64,000 nucleotides of DNA from Escherichia coli (GTDB lineage Bacteria; Pseudomonadota; Gammaproteobacteria; Enterobacterales; Enterobacteriaceae): assembly GCF_030384885.1 (NCBI RefSeq), contig NZ_CP128613.1; one strand, written 5' to 3'. A program made the position numbers. This document shows positions 44,801-47,800 of the stretch, piece by piece. Positions within the stretch are counted from its first letter, which is position 1; each line of letters opens with the position of its first letter.

Positions 44801-47800
44801 GCGCAATCTAAAATACGTTGATAATCAAAAAGGTCTTTTCTTGGACCAGTTATCAAAAAATCGTCAGGCAATTTAGAAAAGTGATTGAGATGACATAAAT
44901 ATTCCCGTTGCTTCTTGTCTATATTCTTATAGGAAACTGCATAGTTTGGTGGAGTGCCAATAAGATTTTCCATAAATCACCTTGGTAACATATTATAAAA
45001 TCTATTTATTCTAACATTGACAATATAACCAGCTATAAAAAATCGCTCATTTTCAGATATTGCTGTTTACCTGAGGGATGATTCGTTATGCCTAAAAATT
45101 GGGAATCCAGGGTAAACACCCTGGATTAAATCGGGGGAAATGAGCTATTTTTTATAGTCTTCACTGGTAATATAAGTAACACTTGTTGCTAACCTGGCTA
45201 GCGGTAGTGTTAATTAACAATCTAGATGTCGTTATTTTTAAACACCCTAATATTGCACATCGGAGGATTTATGGTTGCTAAATTAAGATCAGATGTTCTT
45301 ATAAATACTAATCCCTTTTCAGAAGTGAAAAATGAGAAGCATAAGCATAACGGATATTCTGACAAGGTTACTTTAGATATTAATAATAAGAAATACGATG
45401 TAAATTTTAAGGATATTGAAAATATTCTGGATGGTAATGGGGTGTTGTTTAAAAAACGTACACTGTGGGAGTTTATTCGCGATCTTTTTCCCGGATCGCA
45501 TATTAAACAAGTTAAAAGCTTAATTTACGAATTTGTGACAAAAAATGATAATAAAGCGGAGATGTTCAAGAATATTAAATCTCTGGCCAAAGTAGAAGAA
45601 CAATGGCGATTTAGTACTACTACAGATTTTACCACAAATGAAAATAATGAAGTGGTTGTGTGTAGATCTTTTAATCTCTACACGGGGGAGACTGTAAATG
45701 AGGCCGATAAGCATCAAGTTTTTTCTGAAAGATTCACTCTTGATAACTATCTTGATGATTTACATTTTGATAATTCTCCCATGAAGAGATTAAAGTTTTC
45801 TGATAATGCTGTAAAACTTACGACGCTTATTAAAAATAAAATTCCTGTTTTTGATACAACTATCAATTTAAATTCGTTGCCTAAAGATGTATTAAATTCA
45901 TTAAAATATTGTAGTTTTAAAAATGTAACTTTTTCAGGAAATATAGAAACTCCGACCCTTGAAGGCCCAGTTTTTGAAAATTGTTATTTCGAAGATTGTA
46001 AGTTCAACAACATACATTTTTATGATCCTAATGAAAAAACTGCAGAGTCAGGAAATGAAAAATCAATAATAGGTATGTTTAAAGGTTGTTTTATTTCTAA
46101 ATGCGAAATAAATCATTATAGTTGTGAGACGTCTCAAGTCTACACCGTTAAACAACCCGTCAATATCCAAGAAAAATTAGGGGCTTATCTCTTTATGCAG
46201 TCTTTTGTTCAAGACTGTACAATTCAGGGAGGTAGTTGTCCTGGATCGAGTATACTTCTGAGTCATTTTTATAACTGTGATATCACAGGACTTGAAGCTC
46301 CTGGAATGAAATTTTTGGCAAACTCATTCAACAAGTCTAATAATAATTACATCAGGGGGAGGGATCATGGGATAGTATTTAATAATTGTACTTTGAACTA
46401 TATTAAAATAAACAGTGGTCTTGGTGAAGCTGGTTCAGGTAAATATATATTTAACCCCGTTGAGTATTTTTCTGATCGCATTGAAAGAAGATCGAGAACT
46501 CTTAAGTTAGATGATAATTTTATTAAATGTGCAGACAATATTAATAAAGGTATTAACTCTTCATATAGCAATGAAAATACAGAGAATAATAACATTTTCT
46601 TTAAAAATAGTCGTTTGCACGGGGCGGATCTGGGCTATTGTTACAGAGAGGACAGACTCGAAGGCTGTACTATCGATTCTGCTACAATTTATTCACAAGG
46701 TAGTCTTACCGATAAAAAATACATTTATATGAATATAGACGGAGCTATAAGTAAAGAACAAATACCTAATTTCATAAATCAGGCAGATGCTCTATATAAA
46801 GACATAGGGGAACTTGAAAAATCCTTGCCAAATACTCGGCTAATATATGAAAAAGCATTTGCAGAATTACAGTCGTTTTTAGCCGCACTCTATAATGAAA
46901 ATGGATCGTTTAAAGAGGAATTTTCTTTTGATATTGAAAAAGCTAATTTTTTTATCTTCAAAGATATGCATGGTAGGGCACAACATATCATTAACAATAT
47001 GATGGGACGTGACAGAATTAACTTTGTTGAATCTGTCATAAAAGAAAAAATTTCGCAGTCAAATGCACAAGAAGATCTTAAATATTCAGAAGAATTTATC
47101 CGAAAAGAAAGGCAAGAGTCTCATAACCAATTTGATAGAAATTTAAATTTCAAATTTAAAGATCTTGTCCACCTATTTGACGATGTTGATATAGACAAAA
47201 TAGAGCTAAAAAATCAACTAGAAAAAATAAAATCTTTTAAAGAACTTTACGACTCAGCACTCAATAATTTTGCTTTCGATTTTCAAAATTTAGCAGGTAT
47301 ATTTAAAATTAACAAGGAAAGTTTAACCAAATATTATCAGGAAGTAAAAGAGTCCAATGAGGGTTACGAGGATATATTGCAAAAAATTAACGAATTAACA
47401 AAAGAACATAATAAAATTGTGAAAGAGAAAGCACAACTAGTTAGTGAAAACAAAGATAATTTGACGCGTAATGATATACAAAGAAAATTAAATAACTTTA
47501 AGATTGATATTGATAAAATAGATGATGAAATACGAACTTACCAGGATATTGTTCAAAATTATAGTCGGGAGAAAAAATATAAAAAGTATAAAAAACTCAG
47601 TGAAATAATCTTGAATATTATTACATGGTTCGATAAATATCCCGATATTGTGAAAAATATAACCCAGGCTTAGCTAAGCAGAGAGTGATTGACTGGACGA
47701 ATAACGACATAAATTTTTGAAAGGGAAACATACGCTTACTCATCAGACACTTGGTAGTCTTTATCTCAAACCAGCGTGACTGATGTGTAAGCGTTAAAGT

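Follow-up and report, generated by a model that had tools for sequence, protein, structure and literature searches.

The inverted repeat at the right end of the phoU-yieH region is a hairpin of 63 nt that has been duplicated together with a type III effector gene and is shown here to be under purifying selection that preserves its pairing. With a probability that we put at about 55%, it encodes an RNA stem-loop with which espY4-family transcripts end and which, at the copy described here, probably also serves the convergent yieH transcript. The window, i.e. the whole stretch of 64,000 nucleotides of Escherichia coli DNA that was analysed, is identical to E. coli 2013C-4282 (NZ_CP027579) and carries, in this order, phoU, an effector pseudogene, a pentapeptide-repeat gene, an espY4-like gene, and yieH. 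This phoU-yieH region is a variant of the Z5211-Z5214 island, which takes the place of bgl in roughly one in five E. coli, lacks apparent mobilisation functions, and has been proposed to be horizontally acquired (Sankar et al. 2009, PMC2646131). The features around the hairpin are compiled below in positions of the window.

45226 to 47673, plus strand: espY4-like type III effector gene, ORF of 815 aa (RefSeq start 45271, 800 aa); from ORF call and RefSeq annotation
47674 to 47731, plus strand: stretch of 58 nt from the effector stop to the hairpin; sequence read
47732 to 47794, unstranded: entire hairpin of 63 nt, with outer stem, inner stem, and 14-nt loop; sequence read, repeat search, and folds
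47732 to 47746, unstranded: 5' outer arm ACGCTTACTCATCAG, with the T at 47740 unpaired; sequence read and repeat search
47748 to 47755, unstranded: 5' side of the inner stem, CACTTGGT; fold
47756 to 47769, unstranded: apical loop of 14 nt, AGTCTTTATCTCAA; fold
47770 to 47778, unstranded: 3' side of the inner stem, ACCAG, a bulged C at 47775, and GTG; fold and pair conservation
47780 to 47794, unstranded: 3' outer arm CTGATGTGTAAGCGT, with the T at 47786 unpaired; sequence read and repeat search
47795 to 47809, unstranded: spacer of 15 nt between hairpin and yieH stop; sequence read
47810 to 48475, minus strand: yieH (6-phosphogluconate phosphatase), convergent with the effector gene; NF007854, E 1.5e-132

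The inverted repeat is genuine and beyond chance. An earlier note on this DNA had described 15-bp arms with one mismatch around a spacer of about 33 nt, placed between yieH and a convergent gene of about 800 aa where the island meets the yieH 3' end, and this description is borne out throughout. Direct reading of the sequence gives ACGCTTACTCATCAG at 47732-47746 and CTGATGTGTAAGCGT at 47780-47794, complementary at 14 of 15 positions, with a single T·T mismatch (47740/47786) and a spacer of 33 nt; the effector ORF ends at 47673 on the plus strand and yieH at 47810 on the minus strand. A repeat search lengthens the arms to 19 nt (47732-47750 / 47776-47794, 89% complementary), and in the RNA fold the pairing proceeds inward beyond the outer arms to an interrupted stem of 22 bp, closed by an apical loop of 14 nt. 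The calculation of fold energies, which the same note had asked for, yielded a stable hairpin on both strands, with -29.9 kcal/mol on the plus strand (z -4.2) and -29.3 kcal/mol on the minus strand (z -5.3), neither of which was equalled by any of 200 dinucleotide shuffles; overall the energies span -27.5 to -29.9 kcal/mol. Within the 64-kb window the arm motif, with up to 2 mismatches allowed, is matched by the two arms only, about 0.10 matches being expected by chance, and two matches were reached in 1 of 100 shuffles. RefSeq annotates no feature under the hairpin.

The 815-aa ORF is the counterpart of espY4 (Z5214) in O157-type strains, and its product is 60-62% identical to the common 802-aa EspY4. 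Judged by sequence comparison, it is a second, deeply diverged effector allele class: the 3' half of the gene shows only 66-70% DNA identity to the common type, against 92-97% in the adjoining yieH. A Pfam search of the effector returned a weak, sub-threshold pentapeptide match as the sole one, and in a protein search for relatives the best 120 matches listed all came from Escherichia or Shigella. About 494 member sequences, forming one cluster, match the espY4-like protein of the window at 97%. A small ORF on the minus strand (47621..47809) was discarded as a mere read-through frame past the yieH stop, which an indel in the 15-nt spacer breaks in other strains. Farther into the island, a gene at 43783-44973 (minus strand) encodes a pentapeptide-repeat protein of 396 aa; in NCBIfam, Qnr-type proteins and the Hailong effector HalA match it weakly and far below threshold (E ~1e-4, 22 bits; cut-offs 240-460), probably through shared repeat composition only.

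On its right side the hairpin coincides with the end of the island. Across it the GC content climbs from about 0.3 to 0.54, and the yieH loci of island-free Escherichia and of other genera share no homology with the window past the yieH stop codon. The nucleotide identity of yieH between the window and the K-12-like allele amounts to 65-88% and recovers near 48610; an island boundary beyond yieH, as these values suggested, was rejected on protein comparison, in which it is the K-12-type allele that stands apart. YieH of the window is 94-96% identical to that of E. whittamii, cryptic-clade Escherichia, and E. coli SCPM-O-B-8794, the O157-type protein 93-95% identical to the same set, and both are 90-91% identical to YieH of E. 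albertii, whereas K-12-type YieH reaches 83-87% identity to all YieH proteins compared. By these identities the yieH beside the hairpin is a native Escherichia allele, which places the right junction of the Z island within 15 nt after the yieH stop; the hairpin is then the outermost island-specific element.

It is the K-12/bgl-type yieH (window 47810-48610, including the yieH-adeP intergenic region) that is the odd allele, although yieH is usually treated as core flank, and the bgl-type locus seems, from the comparison of alleles, to have acquired a foreign yieH, by import or by recombination. For work on the bgl/Z locus, the finding that the K-12-type and not the island-type yieH is divergent is a by-product perhaps more useful than the hairpin. 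Farther right, the core-gene segments at window positions 48700-50000 (adeP) and 51900-52400 show only 87-95% identity to both K-12-like and O157-like sequences, which are mutually 97-99% identical, a pattern that points to additional imported or mosaic stretches in strain 2013C-4282.

With an 85-nt query, the hairpin was found at 2199 places in 1108 of 5426 complete E. coli genomes, on chromosomes only and never more than twice per genome. A stretch of 301 nt comprising the effector 3' end, the hairpin, and yieH is mostly present in 1105 genomes, so that hairpin and island go together, and at every locus inspected both hairpin copies lie inside the Z5211-Z5214 island. An identical repeat after yieH in island-free strains, the case that the earlier note had named against an island-specific element, did not turn up: the repeat was not found downstream of yieH in bgl-type (K-12-like) strains, and among the yieH loci of 80 species representatives it is absent from 79 enterobacterial species, in which nothing beyond the yieH stop is homologous to the window. 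An ancestral yieH terminator is rejected on the latter ground. The sole exception is an E. coli-like contig of 3099 nt in a 'Collinsella sp.' metagenome-assembled genome (JAIJJM010000384.1), on which E. coli yieH is accompanied by the hairpin and the effector 3' end, evidently a bin contamination of the public genome collection. The plasmid collection gave no real match to the hairpin, the single one being a 4.9-Mb chromosome filed as a plasmid, and the phage collection gave none. Rfam 15 returned 0 matches at E values up to 10 over 47000-48600 on both strands. A metagenome scan added 77 further copies with 17 distinct hairpin sequences, all of them on E. coli-like contigs. A dispersed repeat of the REP/BIME, ERIC, or MITE kind is rejected on copy number, with at most 2 places per genome in the 1108 genomes.

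The common island type carries a second hairpin, c1, inside the island after a paralogous Z5211-like gene, in addition to the copy beside yieH, c2; the distance from stop codon to hairpin is 57-58 nt for both paralogs. To the right of c1 stands a decayed yieH, consisting of the stop-proximal bases followed by an internal piece that matches window positions 48093-48155 with an alignment score of 64, against a shuffle maximum of 24, and beyond it a fragment of cbrC. As the sequence lets it be read, this layout bears the mark of a tandem duplication in which the copied segment reached from cbrC' into yieH. Since the duplicated segment holds part of yieH, the hairpin would have adjoined yieH before the duplication and been copied within the larger segment. 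In the window lineage c1, the yieH remnant, and the 3' part of the first effector gene were lost, so that a frameshifted pseudogene is left (window 42882-43643), and because of this loss the number of genomes with at least 99% identity to the hairpin query (17) equals that of single-copy genomes (17). The tandem-duplication signature inside the island may be a useful by-product for studies of the bgl/Z locus.

The complete order in the common type is Z5211-like gene, c1, yieH 3' remnant, cbrC remnant, pentapeptide gene, espY4, c2, and yieH (locus L002, 2299-9850, O157-type). In the window, the remnant of cbrC (yieJ) measures 93 nt (43642-43734) with about 81% identity to K-12 cbrC; it lies between the effector pseudogene and the pentapeptide-repeat gene and is shared with O157-type strains (L002, 4931-5024).

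The evidence for selection comes from the contrast between the hairpin and its surroundings. Comparison of the window type with the common island type gives 92-97% identity for the hairpin, as against 66-70% for the effector 3' half, 78-79% for the 58-nt stretch, and 69% for the 15-nt spacer. Between c1 and c2 all 30 bases of the outer arms are identical, and the loop and flanks differ, while the two paralogous genes share 67-70% nucleotide identity and their proteins only about 50-60%. The same picture emerges within c2, where 27 alleles show variable sites at 2 of 15 positions of the 3' arm and 0 of 10 of the inner 3' stem, as against 28 of 73 in the non-coding flanks (20 of 58 in the 58-nt stretch and 8 of 15 in the spacer); the apical loop is variable at 4 of its 14 positions, and the upstream stretch GGACGAATAACGACATAAAT is relatively conserved. 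The 5' outer arm is invariant in 9 of 9 genome-derived copies, c1 and c2 alike. For the 3' outer arm, the 17 distinct alleles contain four variants, namely two C->T changes (G·U on the plus strand), a T->C at the terminal pair, and a T->C at the mismatch. In the inner stem CTGGT/ACCAG is invariant, and the remaining pairs change only to U·G. The search pattern used for the metagenomes prescribed the motif AAACCAG and 12 nt of the 5' arm, and the 77 copies so retrieved, which were assigned to c1 or c2 by the similarity of their right flank to yieH, are unbiased only in the 3' arm and in the inner stem outside this motif; the nine genome-derived copies are unbiased over the whole hairpin. As the arms are identical between paralogous copies and neighbouring non-coding DNA stands at 66-79%, purifying selection is the appropriate reading.

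These figures also bear on the suggestion that the hairpin is a non-functional relic, for instance what is left of an old mobile-element end, or a palindrome that arose by chance at the insertion junction, and persists through linkage only. Such an origin could be accommodated by the AT-rich character of the island and its proposed horizontal acquisition (Sankar et al. 2009, PMC2646131), by the lack of any Rfam match and of a U-tract, and by read counts for Z5214 that are at or near zero in most conditions tested, with a rise in an antibiotic condition (PMC4048457). Set against this, however, are the 30 of 30 arm bases that are the same in paralogous copies whose flanks have come down to about 70-80%, for which the neutral chance is roughly 0.72^30 = 5e-5, and the much more diverged sequence on both sides of the hairpin; a conversion tract would have homogenised the loop as well, and the loop differs. 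A relic is, on balance, unlikely.

With respect to the pairing itself, the proposed structure is paired in 98% of the cells of the alignment of nine genome copies. Seventeen of the 22 pairs are invariant, four change on one side only, and one is unpaired (A·C) in the four c1 copies. No compensatory double change occurs in the nine copies, and covariation therefore gives no proof of RNA structure. The direction of the changes is uniform: each of the four one-sided changes leaves a G·U or U·G pair on the plus strand, which on the minus strand would read A·C. Folding of the alleles adds that at c1, beside which yieH is dead, the plus strand is more stable than the minus strand in 10 of 10 alleles, by 2-5 kcal/mol, and that at c2 most alleles fold about equally on both strands. 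Taken together, these 4-5 substitution events, free of covariation, do no more than suggest selection for an effector-sense RNA at both copies, plus a yieH-sense RNA at c2.

The same invariance of the arms, including the T·T mismatch, would fit equally well with sequence-specific recognition of DNA or of RNA. At the DNA level the hairpin might be a palindrome targeted by a protein, or a recombination site of hairpin or cruciform form, used in acquiring or duplicating an effector cassette next to yieH, a notion to which the constant arm sequence without compensatory changes lends itself, as do the place of the hairpin as the outermost island-specific sequence, the occurrence of the unit of gene plus hairpin twice in the common island type, and the lack of apparent mobilisation functions in the island (Sankar et al. 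2009, PMC2646131). Yet the left end of the island holds no partner, the 64-kb window has no further copy, and the element is never seen elsewhere in the 5426 E. coli genomes, the plasmids, or the phages. The yieH fragment to the right of c1 likewise speaks for a segmental tandem duplication whose junction is not at the hairpin, and for every one-sided change one of the strands retains a wobble pair, which is relevant to RNA or single strands and not to duplex DNA. The ends of the repeat, CGCTTAC and GTAAGCG, also mismatch the attC cores RYYYAAC and GTTRRRY. A DNA-level site is accordingly regarded as rather improbable.

Two specific candidates of this kind were discarded: an integron attC site on its core motifs, GTAAGCG fitting GTTRRRY at 4 of 7 positions, and an attachment site or boundary repeat of the island, for which the other end offers no match and the second copy of other strains lies inside the island. 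The recombination scar that had been offered in the earlier note as one of two ideas finds no support, for related reasons: a partner at the left end is missing, the second copy is internal, and invariant arms between flanks diverged by 20-35% are unlike a neutral scar. Its other idea, a bidirectional terminator for the two convergent genes, is the better one, though only as a putative mode of action, the element being selected and, at this copy, folding equally well on both strands; a canonical U-tract and a call by a terminator scan are lacking.

The details of this second idea are as follows. A stable stem-loop 58 nt past the effector stop and 15 nt past that of yieH is what one expects of an intrinsic terminator; its place between convergent genes and its folding on both strands are what one expects of bidirectional action. 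The first 8 nt after the stem, however, are UAAAGUUC on the plus strand and AUGUUUCC on the minus strand, neither of which is a canonical U-tract. Upstream of the hairpin the plus strand is A-rich (GAAAGGGAAACAT) and thereby provides a weak U-tail on the minus strand; downstream the plus strand is not U-rich. A consensus terminator scan that requires at least 5 T in 8 called the site on neither strand, and TransTermHP-style tail scores of -2.3 to -3.2 are marginal. An interrupted stem of 22 bp with a loop of 14 nt likewise departs from the compact design of a short G+C-rich stem and a loop of 3-8 nt. Because a canonical U-tract is missing, the scan is negative, and stem and loop are oversized, the hairpin is not classed as an intrinsic terminator; it is most likely a terminator-like or protective hairpin, of an ordinary kind in an unannotated instance.

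By its position, its stability, and the pairing that has been kept, the element fits a hairpin at a transcript 3' end, and in every other arrangement of the locus, too, a hairpin is found directly 3' of yieH. A long and stable hairpin would form in the nascent RNA and define its 3' end, either by promoting pausing and release of the polymerase or by standing in the way of 3'-to-5' exonucleases once termination or processing has taken place farther downstream. By either route the message would be stabilised, and less read-through would reach the antisense strand of the gene opposite. That the hairpin acts at the RNA level, ending or stabilising transcripts, and which strand it serves, we infer from the patterns described above.

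RNase III accepts duplexes of about 22 bp with small internal mismatches. By analogy with lambda sib, the element might thus be a regulatory processing site, i.e. an RNase III target from which decay of the effector mRNA proceeds from the 3' end, or else form part of a small RNA antisense to the yieH 3' end. Its 22-bp duplex with small internal mismatches lies in the range of RNase III, selection apparently acts on the plus strand, and the upstream stretch GGACGAATAACGACATAAAT is relatively conserved. No promoter-like site was called just upstream on the plus strand, however, which also disposes of an independent small-RNA promoter; furthermore, Rfam has no match, and no terminator follows the hairpin to define a small RNA. 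The probability of such a role is small. A broader proposal is that the hairpin is recognised in a sequence-specific manner and does more than passively end a transcript, for example as an RNase III-type retroregulation switch that would couple effector mRNA stability to read-through, or as a single-strand DNA hairpin used in cassette insertion or duplication. Sequence-specific recognition is mildly favoured by the arms and the unpaired T·T, which are invariant between paralogs with protein identities of only about 50-60%, and such a switch or cassette hairpin is still given only a slight chance.

For the two orphan type III effector genes (Z5211-like and Z5214/espY4), the hairpin represents a selected non-coding 3' element that annotation lacks, and it offers a defined handle on the insulation of poorly expressed island genes from the housekeeping gene yieH, although its practical value is small.

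Among known systems, terminators of convergent genes come close: they are stable stem-loops in short intergenic regions, a few to a few dozen nt past both stops, and the island copy is equally stable on both strands and more conserved than its surroundings. It differs from them in the absence of a clear flanking pair of A-tract and U-tract, in a stem about twice the usual length, in its 14-nt loop, and in having no scan call, so that termination here is putative. With the 3' hairpins of the REP/BIME family it shares the imperfect palindrome in a 3' untranslated region, the absence of a U-tract, and a possible role as an exonuclease barrier; unlike these, it occurs in 1-2 copies per genome, in one island, and has no sequence similarity to REP. 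True REP follows yieH in the island-free E. whittamii and E. coli SCPM-O-B-8794, after a compact GC stem.

The yieH hairpin of K-12, E. albertii, and the cryptic clades, ACTCCCTTCACTTAC...GTAAGNAAAGGGAGT, also follows directly after the yieH stop and is of similar size, with -29 to -37 kcal/mol, but it has another sequence, sits between co-oriented genes, and is not homologous in alignment to the island hairpin. In this K-12-type hairpin (L003, 8925-8990; also L009, L011, and L012) the 3' arm holds the cbrB Shine-Dalgarno sequence, which precedes the ATG by a few nt, an arrangement that could couple or mask cbrB translation. The lambda sib/tI element, finally, offers an analogy pure and simple, with no sequence relation and with RNase III cleavage being hypothetical for the island hairpin: there, too, a long hairpin lies downstream of a horizontally acquired gene, and it could act as a terminator or as a nuclease entry site depending on read-through.
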